Below, one piece after another: positions 19,118 through 63,726 of a DNA stretch of 64,000 nt. The DNA is taken from sequence record ON645936.1. One strand, written 5' to 3'. Made by a program: the position numbers and the translations under genes. Position 1 is the stretch's first letter; each line of letters opens with the position of its first letter. Origin of the DNA: Escherichia phage N2. The notes below the pieces were generated by a model, which was given only the letters and a program-made list of their open reading frames with translations, was not told the DNA's origin and ran no database searches.

Positions 19118-20544
19118 TAAAATTTTAATTCATTTGCCAAAGCATCTAACTGAGCTCGAGTCGATTCGTTTCTTTGATAGCGATTCTGTTCAGCCTGAAT
19201 CTGTTGTGAACCTGCTACCTCACTCACTTCAGTTGGAGTAGAATCTTGTTCAATTTCTACCCATTTCTGATTTCCTTTTTGAACACCCATCAAAAACTTA
19301 TTCCACTTATTCTTATCACCATATCGTGATTTGATTTGCTTAATGAGTTGTTGTTCAGCAGCTGCTAGCTCCTCGGTTTCAATGACCGCAAGCATAAAAT
19401 CAGCTGTTGCTGGAAGACCAGCAGATTCTGCGATATCACTCATGTTAACATCAGAAGAGTCCCAAGCTTGTTTACCAACCTGTGCTGCAGTCCAAAGAAC
19501 AGTTTCGGTTTCAACAGCCAGAGCACGCAATTCCTCTGCGATAGCTTTAACAGTTGTGTAACTATTTTCTGAATAAACTCTAATGCGGCAAGATTTACAA
19601 ATACCTAGATAGTCGACAATAATGATTGTTGGAACAAAATTCTTCTTGAGCTTCAATTCGTTTAAAAGTGATCGAAATGTATTAGCGTCTGCTCCACCAG
19701 TAGGATATTGCTTAACGATTAAACGACCAAGGGTAGATTTCTCACGCCATTTTTCCATTTTTCCTTTATATTCAGCGTAAGAAATATGTCCATCATCAAT
19801 ATCGTCAAGAGAAACATCGAGCATGTTAGCATCAATACGTTTAGCACAGACTTCTTCTGCCATTTCCATGGAGATATAAAGAACGTTATGACCAAGCTGC
19901 AAATAATCTGCTGCTAATGAACAAAGTCCTAATGATTTACCAACGTTAACGCCAGCCATTAAAACGTTCAGTGTTCCAGTCTCAGCTCCGCCTTTAGTAA
20001 TTTTGTTTAGAATTCTGAGTTTAAATGGAACCTTACGAGCTTTATTCATATAAGATAGCCAACGCGCTTCATAGTCATCCATCCAATCATGACCAACGTA
20101 GCTATCAAATGAAATTGATAATGCTTGGCGCATGATGTCAGGAATAGCACCTACATCTGGCATTTTCTTATTTCGTTTTTCCGGAGGAAGCTCAGCATTA
20201 GTTTGAATTTCGATTATTTTAGACGTAGCATTAAACATCGCCCTTTGCTGAACATATTTTTCTGTTTCTTTTACTAACCAGCTGTGGTCTTCCGGAGAAT
20301 CAGCCAGTTTTGAAATAAGTGTTTTTACACCAGAATATTCTGTTTCAGTAAATGAACTATTTTCTAATGCAACATTTAACGCATTAATAGATGGAACGCT
20401 ATGATACTCATTGACATGAGATTTAATTAATTTGAATGTATTTTTAGCTGGACCACTTTCAAAATATTCTGAATCCATATATGGCCAAACTTTTGAAAAA
20501 TAAGCTTGATCAAATATGAGATGAGAAAGAATAATTTCTACCAC
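19117..20544 (-). CDS. 41: replicative DNA helicase (DnaB-like)
   Basis: 475 aa; Walker A GVNVGKS. Confidence 0.9.
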   Translation of the reverse strand: MVEIILSHLIFDQAYFSKVWPYMDSEYFESGPAKNTFKLIKSHVNEYHSVPSINALNVALENSSFTETEYSGVKTLISKLADSPEDHSWLVKETEKYVQQRAMFNATSKIIEIQTNAELPPEKRNKKMPDVGAIPDIMRQALSISFDSYVGHDWMDDYEARWLSYMNKARKVPFKLRILNKITKGGAETGTLNVLMAGVNVGKSLGLCSLAADYLQLGHNVLYISMEMAEEVCAKRIDANMLDVSLDDIDDGHISYAEYKGKMEKWREKSTLGRLIVKQYPTGGADANTFRSLLNELKLKKNFVPTIIIVDYLGICKSCRIRVYSENSYTTVKAIAEELRALAVETETVLWTAAQVGKQAWDSSDVNMSDIAESAGLPATADFMLAVIETEELAAAEQQLIKQIKSRYGDKNKWNKFLMGVQKGNQKWVEIEQDSTPTEVSEVAGSQQIQAEQNRYQRNESTRAQLDALANELKF

Positions 20545-42079: not shown

Positions 42080-42550
42080 TTAATCATGTTTCCACACCCC
42101 ATCGGTATTTGACCAAAGTCGCTGATTATCTGAACCTCGCCACAGCTTTTTGGTTGGAAGATTTTTCTCATACTTCCCATCAATAATAACATCAACATAT
42201 TTAAGCATTTCTAGTTGTTTAATATCTTCAAACTTGTACCCTGTCCACAACCAAATGCTTTTATTTGGATAAAGATTTTTTACAGTTTGAACAATGCAAT
42301 GAACATCATCTCGGTTATCAGGATAAAGAGGGTCACCTCCAGTTATAGTTAATCCTTCTATATAATCATTATTCAAACATTCAATTAATTGTTCTAGTGT
42401 TTCACCAGTAAATGGAACGCCATTTCTAGCATTCCATGTTGATTTATTATAACACCCTTCGCATTTATGCAAACAACCTGTAACGAAAAGAACTGTCCTG
42501 CATCCAGGACCATTAACAAAGCAGCACGGGTATATTCTGTCATAATTCAT
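42080..42550 (-). CDS. nrdG: anaerobic RNR activating enzyme (radical SAM)
   Basis: 156 aa from ATG at 42550; CLHKCEGC cluster motif. Confidence 0.85.
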   Translation of the reverse strand: MNYDRIYPCCFVNGPGCRTVLFVTGCLHKCEGCYNKSTWNARNGVPFTGETLEQLIECLNNDYIEGLTITGGDPLYPDNRDDVHCIVQTVKNLYPNKSIWLWTGYKFEDIKQLEMLKYVDVIIDGKYEKNLPTKKLWRGSDNQRLWSNTDGVWKHD

Positions 42551-43377
42551 AATAATATCCAATTTTTCCAAGCTTCATCAGTAGAATTACAGCGTTTTAG
42601 TATAAGATGTCTAGAAACTTTTATGGCATTTGAGCACTTTTTAATTGAATCATATTTAATACCGTCAACTGAAACGGTTTTGCTAGTTGGAGAAATTTTT
42701 CCATACATTGGATTTTTTGAACCAACTTGAAGTCCTTTTAAAGCTTTTGAAAGCTTTTGTCTAGATTCCAATGACATGGGAGAATTCTTTTTACCTTCAA
42801 TAATTCGCTTGCGATGAAGTTCGCGTTCTTCTTCACTCAAAGAATTGTAATATTTTTTAACACCGTTTGATATAGATAATTTATCTTTCTCAGACCGCTC
42901 TCCAGCTAATTTACTTCTAACATCTTTTCGCTTCATAGCTATGCTTACGGCTTTATTTAAATTTGCTTGATGCTCTGGCGTACGTTTATATTTCTTTAAA
43001 GCACGTGAAATAGCTATTTTAGTTTCTTCTGTTCTCTTTTTACCTTTATTTGCTAAACTATTTTTGCGGCGATGTTCAAGTGTCTGTTCATAGGCAGTTC
43101 CACCTTTTCCACCAGGTTTAATATTATATGTATTTTCTTTTAGACAATACTCTTCGGTTACAAGTTCAGCTTCTTTATCATACATTTGTTTTTCATTATC
43201 AAAAACATGTAAAATTTCTTTATTAAAATTTTTTCTACCATATTTTAATAAAGCGGCACGAATCAATGTTCCTGACCCCATATAACCGTCATTTATGTTA
43301 TCGGTGCTATGCGCACCGATATATTCCTTTGAATTAATTATATTTGTTATTTTATAAATTATATAATACCTATGCAT
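42547..43377 (-). CDS. GIY-YIG homing endonuclease between nrdD and nrdG
   Basis: 276 aa; YIIYKITN...EYIGAH; start overlaps nrdD stop by 8 nt. Confidence 0.6.
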   Translation of the reverse strand: MHRYYIIYKITNIINSKEYIGAHSTDNINDGYMGSGTLIRAALLKYGRKNFNKEILHVFDNEKQMYDKEAELVTEEYCLKENTYNIKPGGKGGTAYEQTLEHRRKNSLANKGKKRTEETKIAISRALKKYKRTPEHQANLNKAVSIAMKRKDVRSKLAGERSEKDKLSISNGVKKYYNSLSEEERELHRKRIIEGKKNSPMSLESRQKLSKALKGLQVGSKNPMYGKISPTSKTVSVDGIKYDSIKKCSNAIKVSRHLILKRCNSTDEAWKNWILL

Positions 43378-44644
43378 GTTTTACTCGTTTTACCATTTCT
43401 TTCATTTTACCTAAATTCCATGGAACAACGCTAGGAGTTCCAAGATATCCGCATGTTCTTCTTATTGTGTTCATCTTTTTAGGATCAGTTTCTCCACAAA
43501 TAGAACAAACAAATCCGTTTTCAGTAGGAGTCATTTCATGGGTACTTCCACATGTAAAACATTTATCTACTGGCATATTAACACCAAAATAATCTAAATG
43601 TTGTGCAGCATAATCCCATACAGCCTCAAGACCTTTTAGGTTATTTTTCATATCAGGAAGTTCAACATAAGAAATGTGACCACCTGTCGCAATGAAATGA
43701 TACGGGGCTTCGCGAGAAATCTTTTCAAACGGAGTAATATTTTCTTCTACTGAAACGTGGAAACTGTTAGTATACCAGCCTTTATCGGTAACATCTTTTA
43801 CACTTCCATATTTCTCAGTATCAAGTTTACAGAAGCGATAGCACAGGTTTTCAGCAGGAGTAGAATACAAACTAAAAGCAAATCCGGTTCTTTCAGTCCA
43901 CTGCTTAAGACGAGCATTCATTTTAGTTAAAATTTCTTGTCCAATATCACGACCGACAAGAATATTCAATTCGTGAATACCAATGTATCCTAAGGACACT
44001 GAACTTCTACCGTTTTTAAATAACTCAATTATATCGTCATCAGGTTTAAGACGAACCCCGAATGCACCTTCTTGGTAAAGAATAGGAGCAACAGTCGCTT
44101 TAACTCCTTTTAAGGAACTAATTCTACACATCAAAGCTTCAAAACATAAATCCATTCGTTCATTGAACAATTCGGCAAATTTCTGTTCATTGAACTGTGT
44201 TCCAATATAAGAATCTAACGCAATACGAGGAAGATTCAGTGTTACAACGCCAAGATTATTACGTCCATCAAGAATTTCATTACCAGTGGAATCTTTCCAT
44301 ACGCCCAAGAAACTACGACAACCCATTGGAGAAACAGGAATAGATGAACCTGTGATAGCTTTATTGTTCTTAGCTGAAATAATATCAGGATACATCCTTT
44401 TGCTTGCGCACTCTAAAGCAAGCTGCTTAATATCATAGTTCGGATCGTCTTTATAAAGATTAACACCCTCTTCAACGAACATAACAAGCTTAGGGAAAAT
44501 AGGAGTTATCCCATCACGACCGAGACCTTTAATACGATTTTTCAGAATTGCTTTCTGAATCATTCGTTCAGTCCAGTCAGTTCCCGTGCCAAACGTAATT
44601 GTTACAAAAGGCGTTTGTCCATTAGAGCTGAAAAGTGTATTTAC
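43370..44644 (-). CDS. nrdD: anaerobic ribonucleotide reductase NrdD, exon 2 (5' boundary approximate)
   Basis: C-terminal glycyl-radical motif RRTCGYLG and CxxC..CxxC zinc ribbon; splice site not mapped. Confidence 0.75.
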   Translation of the reverse strand, partial: VNTLFSSNGQTPFVTITFGTGTDWTERMIQKAILKNRIKGLGRDGITPIFPKLVMFVEEGVNLYKDDPNYDIKQLALECASKRMYPDIISAKNNKAITGSSIPVSPMGCRSFLGVWKDSTGNEILDGRNNLGVVTLNLPRIALDSYIGTQFNEQKFAELFNERMDLCFEALMCRISSLKGVKATVAPILYQEGAFGVRLKPDDDIIELFKNGRSSVSLGYIGIHELNILVGRDIGQEILTKMNARLKQWTERTGFAFSLYSTPAENLCYRFCKLDTEKYGSVKDVTDKGWYTNSFHVSVEENITPFEKISREAPYHFIATGGHISYVELPDMKNNLKGLEAVWDYAAQHLDYFGVNMPVDKCFTCGSTHEMTPTENGFVCSICGETDPKKMNTIRRTCGYLGTPSVVPWNLGKMKEMVKRVKHA

Positions 44645-44675
44645 TTCATCATTATATTCAGCATGAGTCGCAAAT

Positions 44676-45446
44676 TCATGCCCGTTTATATGAAACAACA
44701 AAATTTGGATAGTCCATAGATATGCAACGTTCTTTTATAGTGCTAGGATGAAAATTTAGCGCTTTAGCTGCTTCTATATAAGACGTATACTTAATACCGT
44801 CAACAACCACATATTCAGGAACTTTATGAATAGTAGTCTTAATACTCAAAACAAGAGGATGAGTTTCGACTTCACTTTCAGTGCAATTTAAATATTCCGC
44901 TGCTTTTTTAAAACTTCTAAAAGTTTTATTTTTAAGCTTTATCGATACTTGTTTTTTACTTTTTCGACTATTGATATTATTTTGCACATGTTCCTTAGAT
45001 CTTCCGTTTTTAGCATAATATTCAGCTACAGAAGATTTTATATTGTTTTTATGAGATTCGGATAACACTTTACCCTTATGAGCATCTCTTAATTTTTGAA
45101 TATGTTCTTCAGTATCCGGATGCTTATAAAACTTTTTACCGCCTATGGATTTATTTAAACATTTTTTGCTATAAAAATATTTACGTATGACCTCTTCTTC
45201 ATGTTTTAATGCATCTTTATAACTATCAAATGTTTTTAAAATTATCCATTTAGTAGGTGTATCAGTTTTTAAGCGTTCATTTATATACTTAGATGACGTT
45301 GTGTAAGTTTTCCAGTTTGTGGGCTTGTTTTTAATTGTTCTAAATTTTTTATAACCGATATAAATGTCGCCATTAGAAAACTTAACTAAGTATGTAAATG
45401 CGTCTTTATCTTTTATTTTAGTACAACGTCTTTTTATCCATTTCAT
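44676..45446 (-). CDS. intron-encoded GIY-YIG endonuclease (I-TevII-like)
   Basis: 256 aa; YLVKFSNGDIYIGYKK; GAGGTG SD; late promoter upstream. Confidence 0.65.
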   Translation of the reverse strand: MKWIKRRCTKIKDKDAFTYLVKFSNGDIYIGYKKFRTIKNKPTNWKTYTTSSKYINERLKTDTPTKWIILKTFDSYKDALKHEEEVIRKYFYSKKCLNKSIGGKKFYKHPDTEEHIQKLRDAHKGKVLSESHKNNIKSSVAEYYAKNGRSKEHVQNNINSRKSKKQVSIKLKNKTFRSFKKAAEYLNCTESEVETHPLVLSIKTTIHKVPEYVVVDGIKYTSYIEAAKALNFHPSTIKERCISMDYPNFVVSYKRA

Positions 45447-45483: not shown

Positions 45484-45689
45484 CAAGATGACTGCTGCAT
45501 GTCGCCATGCAGATTAGACTATATCTTCATCTTTCGATGCCGGCCGTTTCGAATAGCATTAGCTTCTATTCTACACCGCTACATTCATCACGGTTAGTCG
45601 TTAGGCATTTAGTTCAAAAGAACATTTAGCACGGGATTGTCTACTAGAGAGGTTCCCCGTTTAGACCGGTTTTACATGAGCCTGAATTA

Positions 45690-46232
45690 AATTAACTCAT
45701 ACGCCTGGAATGCATCGTATACGTCTTTTTCTGTTTTAGATTGGGCATAATTCAATGCATCTGCGATTTGCCATTTTTCCGCGTCCTCAATATGTTTTGC
45801 ATAGGTGCGTTTAACATAAGGAGAAAGTACTTTATCTACATTCGCAAAAGTCGTTCCACCATATTGATGGGAAGCAACCTGTGCAGTAATTTGTGCCATA
45901 ATTGCAGTAGCAACGCCAATTGATTTAGGAGTTTCAATTTGAGCATTGCCTAATTTAAATCCATTCTCAAGCATCCCCTTTAAATCGACTAAACAGCAAT
46001 TAGTAAATGGAAGAGCAGGGGAATAATCAATATCGTGCACGTGAATAATTCCGCTTTCATGCGCTTTCATAATAAAAGACGGGACCATATTTTTGGCAAT
46101 GTGCTTAGACACAATACCAGCCATAAGGTCCCGTTGAGTTGGAAAAACACGAGAATCTTTATTAGCATTCTCGTTTAAAAGGTCTTTATTAGTTTTATGA
46201 ATCAATCCTTCAATTTCTTTTTCAATTGTCAT
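45690..46232 (-). CDS. nrdD: anaerobic ribonucleotide reductase NrdD, exon 1 (3' boundary approximate)
   Basis: 181-aa N-terminal part; frame closes at 45687 at intron edge. Confidence 0.75.
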
Positions 46233-47216: not shown

Positions 47217-47321
47217 TTAAGTCATTTATCGTTGGTTCATTATATACTGTTTCTTCATCAGTGTAAACCGGTTCTTCCGGCTCTGGCTCTACAGTTTCCC
47301 ATCTAACCGCCCACCAGGGTT

Positions 47322-47630
47322 TTATAGCGTAATCCATTCTCGTATTGTCTGAGTTACTACACGTTCACGGGGCTCGACTAATTCAACAGTCGGAACTGCA
47401 TAATACCAGTCAGAATGGTAAGAACCTGAACGGCATTCATTTACGGAAACATGTACATTATGTTTTTGGCTAAAATAAACACACTGCCGATATTGGCATT
47501 TACCATCTTGCACCCAGTCTTCTATTTCGATAGGTTTAAGATAATCCGAAAAATCGAAATCATAATTTTCAGAAAATGCATCATGGTCTTCGATTATTTC
47601 ACTCAAAACTGCATCAACATCGTAAATCAT
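47322..47630 (-). CDS. hypothetical protein
   Basis: 102-aa ORF. Confidence 0.45.
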   Translation of the reverse strand: MIYDVDAVLSEIIEDHDAFSENYDFDFSDYLKPIEIEDWVQDGKCQYRQCVYFSQKHNVHVSVNECRSGSYHSDWYYAVPTVELVEPRERVVTQTIREWITL

Positions 47631-57897: not shown

Positions 57898-58284
57898 TTA
57901 TTCGAGGGAAAGAAGATATTTACTCTGGTAAAACATTCCAGTAATATCATCTATCGTGCTTTGGATGGCTGGAGGCATTTCTTTATAAATGCTGTTAGAT
58001 TGGTCTAGTATGCGATCAATCATTTTAATTGTGTCGGTAGGAAGTTTACTGGCATCTGGAATTGAAGGCGTGTATTTTCTACCAGAATACCCCAAATACT
58101 GCTCACCAAATTTATCAATCAAATCTGGCAACTCAGAGAAAATAAAATCGTATGCTTTGTGTCTAGCATAACTTTTAGTTTCAAAATGTGCAGAATGAAA
58201 ATAAGCTTGTGCAGCCATTAATAAACCTAAGTATTCATCTGCCTTTGAAGGTTTTCCACTTTGTGAAAAGTCGCTGAATTTCAT
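57898..58284 (-). CDS. hypothetical protein
   Basis: 128-aa ORF coupled to rI; terminator downstream. Confidence 0.5.
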
Positions 58285-58574
58285 TCAGTCTCCAATTTAA
58301 TGTTCATAATTCTAGCGTATGATTGTGCCATCTCCGCGCCTCGCTCTATACATTCAAAATCGGAAGAGCACGGGTCATTTTTATAAGTCGTTCGCATAAA
58401 ACTATAGAACTGTTCAGATGATTCTACGCTTTTATTTTCAAAAAGCATATAAACATGTCTAATACCAGATTCCATAAATTTATCAAAATGAGGATCGACA
58501 TTTGCTTCAATTGGTGGAGATAAAGCAAACGCTAATCCTAGCATGGCAAATAGTGCCGTTGCTTTTAAGGCCAT
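58281..58574 (-). CDS. rI: lysis-inhibition regulator RI
   Basis: 97 aa starting MALKATALFAMLGLAFALSPPIEA (signal anchor). Confidence 0.8.
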   Translation of the reverse strand: MALKATALFAMLGLAFALSPPIEANVDPHFDKFMESGIRHVYMLFENKSVESSEQFYSFMRTTYKNDPCSSDFECIERGAEMAQSYARIMNIKLETE

Positions 58575-58841: not shown

Positions 58842-59423
58842 CTAACCGAGCTTTTTAGTTAATTCATTCCAGTGTTTTCTACACAAAGAAACATAAATTT
58901 CATCACCAATACAGATTTGATTACCTTCTTTAACTGGTGTTCCATCTTCCATTAATCGAGCTGTCATAATAGCTTTTTTACCACAATGACAAACTGCTTT
59001 TAGTTCAATAAGTTTATCTGCAATCGCCAAAAGTTCTTTAGAACCTTCAAATAATTTTCCAGCGAAATCAGTCCTTAGACCATAAGCCATAACAGGAACA
59101 TTATATGTATCAACAATTCGGCTTAATTGATGCACCTGTTCAGTTTTTAAAAACTGGGCTTCATCTACAAATACACAATGAATATCTTTTTGTGCTTCAG
59201 CCCATTTATAGAACTCAAAAATATCCATATCATCCGTAATAATATTCGCTTCCTGTTTAATTCCAATGCGAGAAACGACTTCACAGACAGAATCGCGAGT
59301 ATCAATAGCAGGCTTAAGAACTAATACACCCATTCCGCGTTCTTTATAATTATGCGCAGCAGTCAAAAGAGAAGCAGATTTTCCAGCATTCATTGCTGCA
59401 TACGTAAAAATTAAACTCGCCAT
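58842..59423 (-). CDS. tk: thymidine kinase
   Basis: 193 aa; P-loop MNAGKSASLL. Confidence 0.9.
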   Translation of the reverse strand: MASLIFTYAAMNAGKSASLLTAAHNYKERGMGVLVLKPAIDTRDSVCEVVSRIGIKQEANIITDDMDIFEFYKWAEAQKDIHCVFVDEAQFLKTEQVHQLSRIVDTYNVPVMAYGLRTDFAGKLFEGSKELLAIADKLIELKAVCHCGKKAIMTARLMEDGTPVKEGNQICIGDEIYVSLCRKHWNELTKKLG

Positions 59424-59639: not shown

Positions 59640-59827
59640 TATTCTTCTACATGCTGTTTACGTTTATTTTTATCTATAAAAGTATATTCAACATATTCAC
59701 CGATATACCATTTATCAGTGTTGTGTTGACTTTTTATAGGACATTTGGTTACTCGAGTTTCGGTCCAGCGTCGAATAATTTCCGCTTTGTTTTTAGGGTC
59801 AAACGGATGCGGGTAATGTGCTTTCAT
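59615..59827 (-). CDS. hypothetical protein
   Basis: 70-aa ORF. Confidence 0.4.
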   Translation of the reverse strand: MKAHYPHPFDPKNKAEIIRRWTETRVTKCPIKSQHNTDKWYIGEYVEYTFIDKNKRKQHVEEYCLKVQWL

Positions 59828-60278
59828 AATCCACCACTATTAAATCAATATCAGGAGTAAACATGTCGATTAATTTAGAAACCTTATCCCAATCGCCGCC
59901 AGCAATACCACAACCTATGCGTGGAATATAAATTACTGGTTTAAACAAAAGGGTCTCTGCCTGTAGATTTAATTCTATCATGCAGTTTACTAAAGCACCA
60001 TAATCAAGATTAGGACCTGGTTCGTATTGCGTATACAGGTTATAGCATATACCAAATCCTGTAGGATTATGTTTAAAAACAATAGACATATCGCCTAATT
60101 TATCACGAGAACCGTACTCAGTAGTGGTTTTATCTATTTCTAAAATTTTAGGATAGGCCCTTGCTAATTGACCTGCTACACCTGAACCCATAGTATGAAA
60201 ACAATTGCACCCGTGCGCAATAATATTACCTTGAAGAAATAGGGCGACAATATCGCCCTTGATATATTTTACAATCAT
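59799..60278 (-). CDS. macro-domain-like protein
   Basis: 159 aa; GDIV...QGNIIAHGCNC...MGSGVAGQL pattern. Confidence 0.5.
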   Translation of the reverse strand: MIVKYIKGDIVALFLQGNIIAHGCNCFHTMGSGVAGQLARAYPKILEIDKTTTEYGSRDKLGDMSIVFKHNPTGFGICYNLYTQYEPGPNLDYGALVNCMIELNLQAETLLFKPVIYIPRIGCGIAGGDWDKVSKLIDMFTPDIDLIVVDYESTLPASV

Positions 60279-60616
60279 CTAGTACTCAATCCTCGATTAT
60301 AAGAATCTACCAAACGGTCAACCATTGAATGACAAGCGGCTTTATCTTTCTCCTCCGCAACTGAACATTCTAAGGTATTCCACTTTTTAGCATATCGTTT
60401 TAATAAAGTATCATTTTTGTATCTGCTTGATTTATCTCTTTCTCCGTCTTTATATGCATATATTAATTTCTGCGCAAATTCAGCTTGGCATGCTTTATTT
60501 TTCCCACAATAATCCGCGGCAGTACGGTTTACATACTCTCTAATTTCAGTGTATGATGTATTTGCTAACACAGAAAATGAAATTAATCCTACACATAAAA
60601 CCAAAATTTTAGTCAT
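60275..60616 (-). CDS. secreted protein
   Basis: 113 aa with N-terminal signal peptide. Confidence 0.45.
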   Translation of the reverse strand: MTKILVLCVGLISFSVLANTSYTEIREYVNRTAADYCGKNKACQAEFAQKLIYAYKDGERDKSSRYKNDTLLKRYAKKWNTLECSVAEEKDKAACHSMVDRLVDSYNRGLSTR

Positions 60617-61154
60617 TTACTATTTCCAACAGTTTATTATTTTTAAGGTAGTTAGCCTTTTCTAGGACTTCAGAAGCATATTTAGAACCTGCTTTAACAT
60701 TCCATCCCGAATTATAAGAGGATATTGCCTTTCTTATATCGCCCTTATGTATATTTAACCAATAAGAAAGTTCAATGTACGCCCAGGAAGCTGAATTGGA
60801 CCGTTTATTCAACATTCTTTTTATTTCGGCATCGGTCATATTATAACCAAGTTCCTTAACTCTTGCTCGCATAGTTGGCAAATAATTTTGGAACATTCCG
60901 TAGGCATGATGCTTTGGTTTAGATTTTAAATTAACTCCGGCAGAGCTTTCTTGCCACAAAATAGCAGCCATTATATGACCCAATCCGCTCTTGTGGATGT
61001 TTTTGTGTGTTTTATATTTTCCATCCTTAGAAAATTGTTCCCCGAATTGATATGCGTAGCGCATGTTATCGAGTTGGACATTACTGAAAGTATGCTCGGA
61101 GCTATGTGCCATCATTGAAATGGCCAATAGACCAGCGAGTAGTGCTTTTCTCAT
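60609..61154 (-). CDS. lytic transglycosylase-like protein with signal peptide
   Basis: 181 aa; ILWQESSAG motif. Confidence 0.5.
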   Translation of the reverse strand: MRKALLAGLLAISMMAHSSEHTFSNVQLDNMRYAYQFGEQFSKDGKYKTHKNIHKSGLGHIMAAILWQESSAGVNLKSKPKHHAYGMFQNYLPTMRARVKELGYNMTDAEIKRMLNKRSNSASWAYIELSYWLNIHKGDIRKAISSYNSGWNVKAGSKYASEVLEKANYLKNNKLLEIVND

Positions 61155-61161
61155 GCTTACC

Positions 61162-61623
61162 TCATTGAGTTTTAATTACTGCTTTAGAAGCCTTTCCTGG
61201 TAAACGACGACTGTTGATAATTGCCATCCTACATTGAAGCGACGGGTCTTTGAACTTCGCATTAGGTTTACAAACTGTGAATCCAAGCCAAAGATTTCCA
61301 TCTGTGATTTCTAAACGTCCAGGGCGATATTCAACCCCATCAATAAAATCCTCGTCAATGTCAGGACGCGGAGGCATACTCAGGAATTCATTAACTTCTA
61401 AAACATGGTCTTTTATTTTGTGGAATAATTCAAAAACATATGTCTCATCAATCTCCCGTTGAATTGCACGATCAAGAAGATGCTGAGAATATTTTAGATG
61501 AAACGATGAGACCCCTGCTGCTTTTGATGCCTCACGAATCTCATTGTTAATTTGACGAAACTCCGACTCAAAGTGACGACGAAGCTTATTTCGACGGATA
61601 AAAACTTCTGTGTTGATAGTCAT
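61162..61623 (-). CDS. regB: endoribonuclease RegB
   Basis: 153 aa starting MTINTEVFIRRNKL; strong promoter upstream. Confidence 0.8.
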   Translation of the reverse strand: MTINTEVFIRRNKLRRHFESEFRQINNEIREASKAAGVSSFHLKYSQHLLDRAIQREIDETYVFELFHKIKDHVLEVNEFLSMPPRPDIDEDFIDGVEYRPGRLEITDGNLWLGFTVCKPNAKFKDPSLQCRMAIINSRRLPGKASKAVIKTQ

Positions 61624-61682: not shown

Positions 61683-62003
61683 TTATTCTTTAAATCTAAT
61701 CAATTTATTCATAGACTTTGAAACTTCTGCACGAACCTCATGTAGGTTTTTAAGCTGTTCAAGACGTTGCTCATAGTAAGCAATTTCATCTTCTTCGAGA
61801 CAGTCCTGTGAATCTTCTTTAAGATAACGTGCGTAGTCCTGGAAAGCTTTACGGACTACTTCTTGGAAGTCATCAAGACTTTGAATTTTCTTAGGAGCAA
61901 CAGATACACGACGAGGGGCAGTATAATACTCATAACCAAACCCTGCGCTTAATTGAGCCATTAATATTTTTCCTCTGGTTGGAACACTGCGCGACAAGCC
62001 CAC
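61683..62003 (-). CDS. hypothetical protein
   Basis: 106-aa ORF. Confidence 0.45.
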
Positions 62004-62227
62004 ATACTGGCTTCTTTGAGTTTCGTTTTAGCAATAGTTAACTGATCGAGGCTTTCGGCGTAATTCTTCGCAAGTTCATCATCTTCACAGCTATCAAATG
62101 CTTCCCAAAATTCATCGTATAAAGCATCAAAGATAAGTCCTAAACGAACTTCAGCGTCTTTGATGGCATTCACTTTACCGATTTTCTTTTCAGTATGTGG
62201 CTTATAACCCTTAATATCTTCAATCAT
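61961..62227 (-). CDS. hypothetical protein
   Basis: 88-aa ORF; start may be internal. Confidence 0.4.
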
Positions 62228-62441
62228 ATTTTACTTCCTCGCCAGTACCCAAATCATATTCAACTAAACGAATAGGTTCATGAATGCCATATCCCTGAAC
62301 AGAAATTTCTGTCGTAGGATAAATTCCATCAATATCACCCATATTCCATGCTTCATTAAATTGCTGTTCGCCTGAATTACTAAACCACTCGGCGAAAGCA
62401 TTTAGCACATCTTCAGAACCTTCAATAATTATCTTTGCCAT
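62220..62441 (-). CDS. hypothetical protein
   Basis: 73-aa ORF. Confidence 0.4.
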   Translation of the reverse strand: MAKIIIEGSEDVLNAFAEWFSNSGEQQFNEAWNMGDIDGIYPTTEISVQGYGIHEPIRLVEYDLGTGEEVKYD

Positions 62442-62803
62442 TACAGACTCTCAGTAAAGGTACGAGCGATAACGTCGCGCTGCTGTTCCGGAGTCAGAGA
62501 GTTAAAGCGAACTGCATAACCGGATACACGGATGGTCAGCTGCGGATATTTTTCCGGATGCTTAACTGCATCTTCCAGAGTTTCACGACGCAGAACGTTA
62601 ACGTTCAGGTGTTGACCACCTTCAATTTTAACTGTAGGCTGTTGCTCAATTTCAATTTCACGGGCATGCAAACCGTAGAAAATTTCTGGGTCTACAAAAG
62701 AGTCCTCTTTAAAGGTTTTAGAAACAATAATTCGTGCTTGAATACCATCTTCAAAATAAATAGTACCTTTATGTGTGCCTTCAAGAATTTGATATGCTTT
62801 CAT
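62441..62803 (-). CDS. GrcA/YfiD-like glycyl-radical protein
   Basis: C-terminal half [14 protein letters not shown]...[29 protein letters not shown]. Confidence 0.7.
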
Positions 62804-62809
62804 ATAACC

Positions 62810-63190
62810 TCAATTAGAAAATAAATTTATCCAAGATTGTTCTTTAATTAAAAATGGCTCAGAATCATATGCCATTAAACTTTGGGTGATTAGTCCTTTA
62901 AAAGGCCCATCAATAAATTCCATGGTAAAATATGGAATTTTATTCATTAACTTTGCATTAGGAGCAGTGCACAAAACTCTGCATCCTTTGAATACACCTT
63001 TTTGTAATTTGTATTGCTTAGGATAAAATTCGCTCAAGACGTTGTTATTTGCCAAAATTTCAAAATGATTCACCAATTTATTTTTAATAGTTTTTGGCGA
63101 AAAATAAAGATATTCGAAAAGTTGCGTATCTGTCATCATTGCATTCCAATTACGAAAAACTGCGGACGAGTAATACCACCAATGCAGCAT
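62810..63190 (-). CDS. hypothetical protein
   Basis: 126-aa ORF; likely true start MMTDTQ. Confidence 0.45.
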   Translation of the reverse strand: MLHWWYYSSAVFRNWNAMMTDTQLFEYLYFSPKTIKNKLVNHFEILANNNVLSEFYPKQYKLQKGVFKGCRVLCTAPNAKLMNKIPYFTMEFIDGPFKGLITQSLMAYDSEPFLIKEQSWINLFSN

Positions 63191-63726
63191 TTACTATTGC
63201 AGCAGTGTTGCACAGTTTCAATATGAATATCGTAAATTTTATCCATATCAGGAGATTTAACAGGCTCATCGATTATATACAAAATTCGAGAAAGCGATAA
63301 ACCTCTGAACTTGCTACCTCTATTACCAACAAAACTACGGACAGAATCAGTAAATAAACGGAATCGAATATCATCGCTAGAATAACGAGAAAATTCTTTT
63401 TTAATGCGGCCCGCAGAAATTTTAGCGTAAGCTGAAGTATTAGAAAGAACAATAACTGTTCCACCGTCATACAACCAATTAGCGGCAAAATTAGTTACTG
63501 CAGTTGATTTACCAGATTGTCTGCCACCATCTAAACGAAGTGTACAATATTCTTTAAATAAATGCGACGAATCAGGTACATAAAATCCACTATTACAAAT
63601 TTCTTCTACTCTAGCATCAGAATGGTGTGTAAAAGCATTCATCAGGGATAGATAAGGACCAGTTAAAAATGTTCTCATTTTATTCTCTCTAAATTTGGGC
63701 CATTCCATGGCGCATGAATTGTCCAT
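63136..63726 (-). CDS. P-loop NTPase-like protein
   Basis: 196 aa; GGRQSGKST Walker A. Confidence 0.5.
   Translation of the reverse strand: MDNSCAMEWPKFRENKMRTFLTGPYLSLMNAFTHHSDARVEEICNSGFYVPDSSHLFKEYCTLRLDGGRQSGKSTAVTNFAANWLYDGGTVIVLSNTSAYAKISAGRIKKEFSRYSSDDIRFRLFTDSVRSFVGNRGSKFRGLSLSRILYIIDEPVKSPDMDKIYDIHIETVQHCCNSKCCIGGITRPQFFVIGMQ

Follow-up and report, generated by a model that had tools for sequence, protein, structure and literature searches.

Spare-part proteins for pyruvate formate-lyase

Escherichia coli GrcA (YfiD) and the bacteriophage T4 protein Y06I (Vs.6) are spare parts for pyruvate formate-lyase (PFL). PMC8683613, with reference to Wagner et al. (2001), states that both proteins are brought into a radical form by the PFL activase, and that in this form they make a complex with oxygen-cleaved PFL in which activity is regained; Wagner et al. 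(2001) is also cited for the function of Y06I in PMC13450708. Only two spare-part proteins for glycyl-radical enzymes have been validated biochemically, Y06I among them. Such proteins are documented for formate-lyases only (PMC13450708). The N-terminal region of GrcA promotes radical installation by the PFL activating enzyme (PFL-AE) and is dispensable afterwards (PMC13450708). We have analysed a stretch of 64,000 nucleotides (nt) from Escherichia phage N2 (ON645936.1), hereafter the window, in which the vs.6 gene is found. The window is a T4-like (Tequatrovirus) segment, and the 1.5 kb around vs.6 is up to 97% identical to hundreds of Escherichia and Shigella T-even phages. We conclude that vs.6 very probably encodes a glycyl-radical spare part for host PFL, and that it is an old copy of grcA in which the 3′ 175 nt were overwritten from E. 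coli grcA, a parallel event having taken place from Klebsiella pneumoniae in Jiaodavirus. The parts of the gene referred to below are as follows.

62441–62803, minus strand: vs.6 (Y06I orthologue, phage GrcA homologue), open reading frame (ORF) for an autonomous glycyl-radical cofactor of 120 amino acids (aa)
62626–62803, minus strand: old AT-rich 5′ half, aa 1–59; phage-type N-terminus, a diverged GrcA N-terminus
62451–62625, minus strand: host-derived patch, probably a conversion, equal to E. coli grcA nt 200–374; encodes the glycyl-radical domain, aa 60–118
62516–62530, minus strand: RVSGY glycyl-radical motif, aa 92–96, aligned to GrcA and PFL
62519–62521, minus strand: Gly95 codon GGT; predicted radical site, equivalent to GrcA Gly102 and PFL Gly734
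62441–62450, minus strand: phage-type tail, last three codons and stop; CTGTAATGG

The closest described relative is T4 Vs.6. The two proteins are identical at 119/120 residues, the single change being Q54 in the window protein and P54 in T4, and a few synonymous changes accompany it; over the whole ORF nucleotide identity is 98.3% to T4 and 99.4% to phage slur03. No functional difference from T4 Vs.6 is expected. T4 has the same vs.8-vs.7-vs.6-vs.5-vs.4(Acb2)-vs.3-regB-...-tk block and the same mosaic with E. coli grcA, its exact run being 178 nt. E. coli GrcA (PDB 6OWR, TIGR04365) shares the stand-alone architecture of ~14 kDa, a homologous N-terminus and, as PMC8683613 relates it for the T4 orthologue, the demonstrated activity. 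The vs.6 product differs from GrcA in its N-terminal 59 residues, which are about 33–35% identical and 7 residues shorter, and vs.6 lies in the AT-rich context of a virulent phage, in phage transcription units and not under host regulation. The C-terminal glycyl-radical domain of PflB (PDB 1H16), the domain that a spare part replaces, corresponds to vs.6 aa 58–120 (PFL 697–759, E = 5e-26), but the phage protein is without the catalytic barrel and without Cys418/Cys419.

A 175-nt block identical to host grcA

Gene nt 179–353 of vs.6 form an exact run of 175 nt with E. coli grcA, and residues 61–120 of the product are identical to GrcA residues 68–127 without exception. An earlier note, made from the sequence alone, had matched the C-terminal ~60 residues of this ORF almost residue for residue to the glycyl-radical domain of GrcA and had suggested a host-derived module. 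The string that it quoted is present, the nucleotide identity bears out a host origin, and similarity is clear both to the PFL C-terminus and to GrcA itself (phmmer against the nuclear magnetic resonance structure 6owr_A, E = 9.3e-42, aa 22–120 to 28–127). The guanine-plus-cytosine (GC) content of the 3′ module (62441–62623) is 0.492, against 0.333 in the 5′ half and a mean of 0.343 in the window. For sliding segments of 183 nt the standard deviation is 0.042, which places the module at z = 3.6. The segment of highest GC content in the entire 64 kb begins at 62437, and the value of the module is reached by 0.017% of segments, every one of them overlapping the module. The GC island and the AT-rich N-terminal half described in the earlier note were thus confirmed.

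Both edges of the block are sharp. On the 5′ side, upstream of the codon that precedes GAAGGT, identity to E. coli grcA drops to 56%. On the 3′ side, the phage-type tail holds the sole two differences from E. coli grcA in the module, both synonymous, and the alignment ends right past the stop codon; the tail states G354 and T357 are common to the Slopekvirus and Cronobacter phage homologues. Gene nt 179–363 were matched in 5,426 of 5,426 complete E. coli genomes at 95–99% identity (98.9% among the matches listed). The other 63.8 kb of the window gave no megablast match to any E. coli genome, so the patch is the only host-identical DNA in the window. Two further GC-rich spots, at 19345–19546 (0.486, in a DnaB-like helicase ORF) and at 47252–47450 (0.475), were considered as host patches; neither has an E. 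coli match, and both were therefore rejected.

Searches with family models placed the protein. Pfam Gly_radical (PF01228) matched aa 60–101 (E = 2.5e-18; 67 bits against a cut-off of 22.2), PHROG 1209 matched aa 1–120 over profile positions 1–121 of 121 (E = 5.7e-63), and the RVSGY motif was unchanged in 9/9 aligned phage homologues. The pyruvate formate-lyase model TIGR01255 was matched at profile positions 680–744 only, with 89.1 bits against a cut-off of 994. Identification of the vs.6 product as a pyruvate formate-lyase, a label wrongly given in several database records, was rejected on this ground and on the missing barrel and cysteines. About 1,500 phage homologues are on record, and records of related phages often already label the gene vs.6, GrcA or ‘autonomous glycyl radical cofactor’. 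Judged by its sequence, the window protein belongs to the phage Vs.6 family and is homologous to GrcA, and its identity to T4 Y06I suggests that it does the same spare-part job through Gly95.

The N-terminal half is an old GrcA N-terminus

The earlier note had taken the AT-rich N-terminus for a separate phage module to which a host domain had been fused, a view that did not survive comparison with GrcA. In BLASTP of the N-termini alone (60 residues), the phage sequence aligned to GrcA 28–67 with 35% identity (E = 5e-6), and hhalign of a profile of 11 phage N-termini with one built from 67 distinct GrcA N-termini of bacteria gave a probability of 93.6% (E = 2.1e-7) over phage positions 15–60 and GrcA positions 19–67. 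As the N-terminus is homologous to that of GrcA, homology to grcA extends over the whole ORF, in which the 5′ half is old and the 3′ half was replaced recently. The 5′ half has a GC content of 0.33 and a third-position GC content of 0.20. Compared with Mosigvirus HX01, its nonsynonymous divergence (dN) is 0.058 and its synonymous divergence (dS) 0.468 (dN/dS about 0.12), by which measure it is under purifying selection.

The phage-type N-terminus, which begins MKAYQ, was also found in T5-like phages, and a related form in a jumbo phage. The T5-like phage AKFV33 (L091:620–988) and 26 T5-like loci from IMG/VR (L147–L172) combine the MKAYQ start with a module that is old and unlike those of hosts. 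It seems that the phage-type gene has been passed from one phage family to another.

Two host species as donors

The source of the module was sought in a set of grcA genes from 80 species of Enterobacterales and Pasteurellaceae, plus E. coli, plus K. pneumoniae, the last taken from a chromosome that had been deposited as a plasmid. Across the 183 nt of the module, differences from the window number 2 in the E. coli reference, 4 in another Escherichia species, 15 in Citrobacter, the next closest genus, and 16 or more in every other sampled species. Divergence among the bacteria is graded and the phage falls on the E. coli sequence, which indicates that transfer was from host to phage and that the donor was E. 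coli itself. The same graded divergence among enterobacteria contradicts the reverse transfer, from phage into E. coli grcA. About 645 phage records carry the patch, with 90–99.5% identity to E. coli grcA, and among the matches listed it starts at grcA nt 200–205. Whole host grcA was in none of these ~645 records.

The Klebsiella-infecting Jiaodavirus phages show the same mosaic, but their module is closer to the grcA of K. pneumoniae (96.0% identity) than to that of E. coli (87.9%). Exact runs against K. pneumoniae grcA measure 107 nt in vB_VIPKPNUMC01 and 132 nt in Merci, and the first 158 nt of the VIPKPNUMC01 module have 3 differences from K. pneumoniae and 18 from E. coli. The Jiaodavirus module encodes the Klebsiella residues LLDAVEH, E77L and K81E being the two amino-acid changes that set the K. 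pneumoniae type apart from the E. coli type, and its third-position GC content is 0.59, against 0.23 in the 5′ half of the same genes. There are 106 phage records with 95–99% identity to K. pneumoniae grcA, starting at nt 199–208 among the matches listed. Because pflB matches the Jiaodavirus query at only ~83%, the DNA donor was grcA and not pflB. The use of the same junction with a different donor implies at least two independent host-to-phage replacements.

Old modules, with at least 22/159 differences from every sampled host, were found in Slopekvirus, Krischvirus, Winklervirus, Pseudotevenvirus, Gualtarvirus, T5-like phages and jumbo phages. No Enterobacter-type patch was present among phage records, the best match being 86%. 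In a scan of 80 IMG/VR loci, host-identical patches were of the E. coli type (L105–L110) and the K. pneumoniae type (L130) only; L174–L184 represent the ends of bacterial pflB genes, and L133 resembles a bacterial grcA.

The E. coli-type patch is retained in Tequatroviruses whose reported hosts are Salmonella, Citrobacter, Proteus and Yersinia, and Jiaodaviruses isolated on K. aerogenes have the K. pneumoniae type, not that of K. aerogenes. The patch may record natural host history, not the isolation host. Frameshifted vs.6 homologues, possibly pseudogenes or sequencing errors, occur in Klebsiella phage CPRSB (L087:601–966) and in IMG/VR locus L130. Two PLSDB entries, CP125156.1 and LR134122.1, are listed as plasmids but represent Klebsiella chromosomes, in whole or in part, and the grcA of K. 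aerogenes NCTC10006 in the PLSDB set is frameshifted, probably through an assembly error.

The patch is younger than the rest of the gene

When the window (Tequatrovirus) is compared with HX01 (Mosigvirus), synonymous differences amount to 13 at 37 sites in the 5′ half, 4 at 5.5 sites in the last seven codons, and 0 at 40 sites in the patch. At the rate of the 5′ half, 0/40 would arise by chance with a probability of about 4e-8, a figure derived from small counts in single gene halves. In the adjacent vs.5 gene 68/222 nt differ between the same two phages. The comparison of 0/40 with 13/37 indicates that the patch is much younger than the surrounding gene.

The genealogy of the patch is in conflict with that of its flanks. 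T4, the window, slur03, F13076 and HX01 have an identical patch. Set against T4, however, the Tequatroviruses IME537 and Killian have only 3 changed nt in the 5′ half but 6–8 in the patch. Over 14 phages from both genera, nearly all patch variants are private substitutions that radiate from the E. coli sequence, and the identical run ends at nt 356 in T4, 353 in the window and 341 in HX01. E. coli is the closest of 82 host sequences to the IME537/Killian patch, but no match above 95.6% to this allele exists among the 5,426 E. coli genomes, and conversion from another E. coli allele was rejected for that reason. The IME537/Killian patch is best read as an older patch that has drifted. In Jiaodavirus, synonymous difference is 0.17 in the patch and 0.23 in the 5′ half, with each phage 3–4 synonymous substitutions away from K. 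pneumoniae. The patch of the E. coli phages postdates the divergence of the genera by far, which implies either repeated re-copying from the host or phage-to-phage spread after capture.

Proposed function and origin

In the mechanism that we propose, the host radical S-adenosylmethionine (SAM) activase PflA would take hydrogen from Gly95 in the RVSGY loop, as was shown for the T4 protein and as is likely for its orthologue here. The radical-bearing C-terminal domain would then dock into host PFL that oxygen has cleaved at Gly734 and would substitute for the lost domain, restoring the conversion of pyruvate to acetyl-CoA and formate. Fermentative energy supply should in this way be kept up during oxygen fluctuations in cells infected in the anaerobic or microaerobic gut. 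As in GrcA, installation of the radical is probably aided by the N-terminal half.

As regards origin, the ORF as a whole very probably goes back to an ancient phage grcA whose composition had come to resemble that of the phage. The 175 nt at its 3′ side were then most likely replaced by homologous recombination (gene conversion) with chromosomal grcA of E. coli, the 5′ junction being placed at the point where homology stops. In the Jiaodaviruses a separate, equivalent replacement at the same 5′ junction would have drawn on K. pneumoniae grcA. In marker rescue from plasmids, T4 is known to recombine at high efficiency with cytosine-containing DNA that is homologous to its own.

Competing explanations

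Recent transfer would not be needed if grcA had been captured once, in the distant past, and its 3′ half had since been frozen by extreme purifying selection and codon bias; the C-terminal domain is indeed highly conserved as protein across the sampled phages and bacteria. However, other phages with the same or nearly the same protein differ at 22–45/159 nt, which shows that constraint on the protein leaves synonymous sites free to change. The synonymous states, moreover, are those of K. pneumoniae in Klebsiella phages and those of E. coli in E. coli phages, and the synonymous differences found beside the patch are absent within it. On nucleotide comparison the ancient capture is effectively refuted, and we accord it next to no probability. 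The manner in which the patch came to be shared by two genera is a separate matter. T-even phages may repeatedly re-copy the glycyl-radical module of the current host's grcA into vs.6 by gene conversion, much as in marker rescue, so that the spare part would stay matched to host PflA and PflB and the patch would log the recent host; we put this forward tentatively. It may instead be that one capture from E. coli and one from K. pneumoniae took place, and that the E. coli patch then spread among co-infecting Tequatrovirus and Mosigvirus by phage–phage recombination, an account that we take seriously while stopping short of calling it probable. Spread between phages agrees with the 5′ junction that is common to all phages listed for each donor, with the resemblance of the Jiaodaviruses to a single event followed by drift, and with IME537 and Killian, whose drifted patch and non-E. 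coli allele indicate that patches can persist without resetting. It is less easily reconciled with the unequal 3′ end of the identical run, or with the fact that both genera are centred exactly on the E. coli allele and share no derived change, and a fixed 5′ junction is expected under repeated conversion too because homology ends there. Several results weigh against one part or another of the explanation that we propose. The synonymous-site test draws on the small counts already mentioned. The Jiaodavirus patch is diverging nearly as fast as its 5′ half, which fits a single event and later drift, not ongoing conversion. Host-identical patches occur in two phage lineages only, and conversion is thus not general. 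The vs.6 product scores 154.9 bits with the NCBIfam GrcA equivalog model TIGR04365 (profile positions 25–126 matched), below the cut-off of 170 and the 233.9 bits of E. coli GrcA, owing to its divergent N-terminus. The present data are compatible with either repeated host conversion or phage-to-phage spread.

The earlier note had also pointed, from the presence of nrdD and nrdG in the window, to repair of oxygen-damaged glycyl-radical enzymes. The anaerobic ribonucleotide reductase genes are arranged as follows.

45687–46232 and 43370–44701, minus strand: nrdD exon ORFs, split by an endonuclease ORF
44676–45446, minus strand: GIY-YIG/NUMOD1 endonuclease ORF, between the nrdD exon ORFs
42547–43377, minus strand: NUMOD3/I-TevI-like endonuclease ORF, between nrdD and nrdG
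42080–42571, minus strand: nrdG

Repair as such probably holds, in view of the documented PFL target and the PFL/GrcA type of the module, but the connection to nrdD and nrdG is weak: these genes lie 16–20 kb from vs.6, and BLASTP of the vs.6 protein against the phage NrdD exon-2 product (43370–44701), which contains the Gly_radical domain, found no similarity (E = 1.6). That vs.6 supplies a spare part to the phage NrdD, activated by NrdG, is accordingly very improbable. NrdD is itself a glycyl-radical enzyme (the title of a reference in PMC13450708 places the T4 NrdD radical at Gly580), both genes are within the window, and in Salmonella jumbo phage 7t3 (MK773491.1; L093:621–983) a vs.6 homologue stands directly between nrdD and nrdG. 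Against this, apart from distance and lack of similarity, the module is identical to that of GrcA and aligns to PFL, spare parts are documented for formate-lyases alone, and the tracking of host grcA by the patch makes sense only with host PflA and PflB as partners. If host PFL is the target, the protein might also act upon it as a decoy, competing with PflB and GrcA for PflA or capping PFL, and so shut down or redirect host fermentation. A distinct phage N-terminus retained under purifying selection would suit such a role, as would the effect of the GrcA N-terminus on radical installation by PFL-AE (PMC13450708). Yet PMC8683613 reports that T4 Y06I restores oxygen-fragmented PFL as YfiD does, and the catalytic module has been kept identical to the working module of the host. 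We consider a decoy unlikely, and prefer the reading of vs.6 as a spare part for host PFL.

Among the contexts seen, the gene order of 7t3 alone hints that a spare part may be linked to a class III ribonucleotide reductase. The 7t3 module is an old one, with at least 31/159 nt differences from any sampled host.

Relation to earlier work

The vs.6 gene and its biochemical activity are already known, and no new kind of system is described here. No description of the host-specific conversion patch at the nucleotide level was found in the searchable literature; older subscription papers may mention the identity. Zeidner and colleagues in 2005 and Sullivan and colleagues in 2006 reportedly described psbA mosaics in cyanophages, with host–phage exchange in auxiliary metabolic genes. 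By that analogy, host–phage exchange would not be new as a concept. In both cases the phage copy of a host metabolic gene is one that swaps internal segments with the host gene by homologous recombination. The vs.6 case differs in that it involves a virulent T-even phage, which breaks down the DNA of its host, in that a single sharply bounded block of 160–178 nt with zero divergence is concerned, and in that sister phage genera received DNA at the same site from two host species.

Here a virulent phage, one that destroys the DNA of its host, carries one sharply bounded, host-identical block of 175 nt, the sole one in 64 kb, and gene conversion from host to phage could be measured with it in a simple, natural setting. 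The patch is a possible sequence marker of the recent host of a T-even phage, and it suggests that the spare part must fit its host partners PflA and PflB. Repeated re-copying, if true, would be a clean and tractable case of ongoing concerted evolution between a host and virulent phages, in which the E. coli-type patch of Tequatrovirus and Mosigvirus and the K. pneumoniae-type patch of Jiaodavirus would constitute a host record. Annotations in need of correction are ‘pyruvate formate-lyase’, ‘hypothetical protein’ and, for PHROG 1209, ‘unknown function’.

The vs.6 locus and its neighbours

The gene lies in a T4-type block between tk and vs, and the order of genes around it matches that of RB69 from vs.8 to vs.4 and that of other phages.

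63136–63726, minus strand: vs.8-like ORF of the T4-type tk-to-vs block
62810–63190, minus strand: vs.7-like ORF, directly upstream of vs.6
62808–62811, minus strand: Shine–Dalgarno-like GAGG, 4 nt 5′ of the vs.6 ATG; sequence ...TAATTGAGGTTAT-ATG
62220–62441, minus strand: vs.5, directly downstream of vs.6
61961–62227, minus strand: Acb2/Tad1 (vs.4)
61162–61623, minus strand: regB
60609–61154, minus strand: SLT-domain protein
59799–60278, minus strand: macro-domain protein (PF01661, E = 5.8e-8)
58842–59423, minus strand: thymidine kinase
58281–58574, minus strand: antiholin

The GAGG element of vs.6 overlaps the stop codon of the vs.7-like ORF, and the TAA stop codon of vs.6 overlaps the ATG of vs.5. 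A scan for promoters and terminators near vs.6 gave signal counts at the level of chance, which fits co-transcription with the flanking vs genes.

Some of the neighbours deserve mention in their own right. Two genes downstream of vs.6, the vs.4 ORF has the Acb2/Tad1 hairpin domain (PF24729, E = 3.8e-19) of a cyclic-nucleotide sponge directed against the cyclic-oligonucleotide-based anti-phage signalling system (CBASS). The macro-domain ORF stands between tk and the vs genes. The vs.8-like ORF, which shares a 55-nt overlap with the vs.7-like ORF, belongs to phrog_1488, of unknown function; it contains the Walker-A-like sequence GGRQSGKST and has a weak match to the terminase large-subunit ATPase (phrog_2, E = 1.9e-6).

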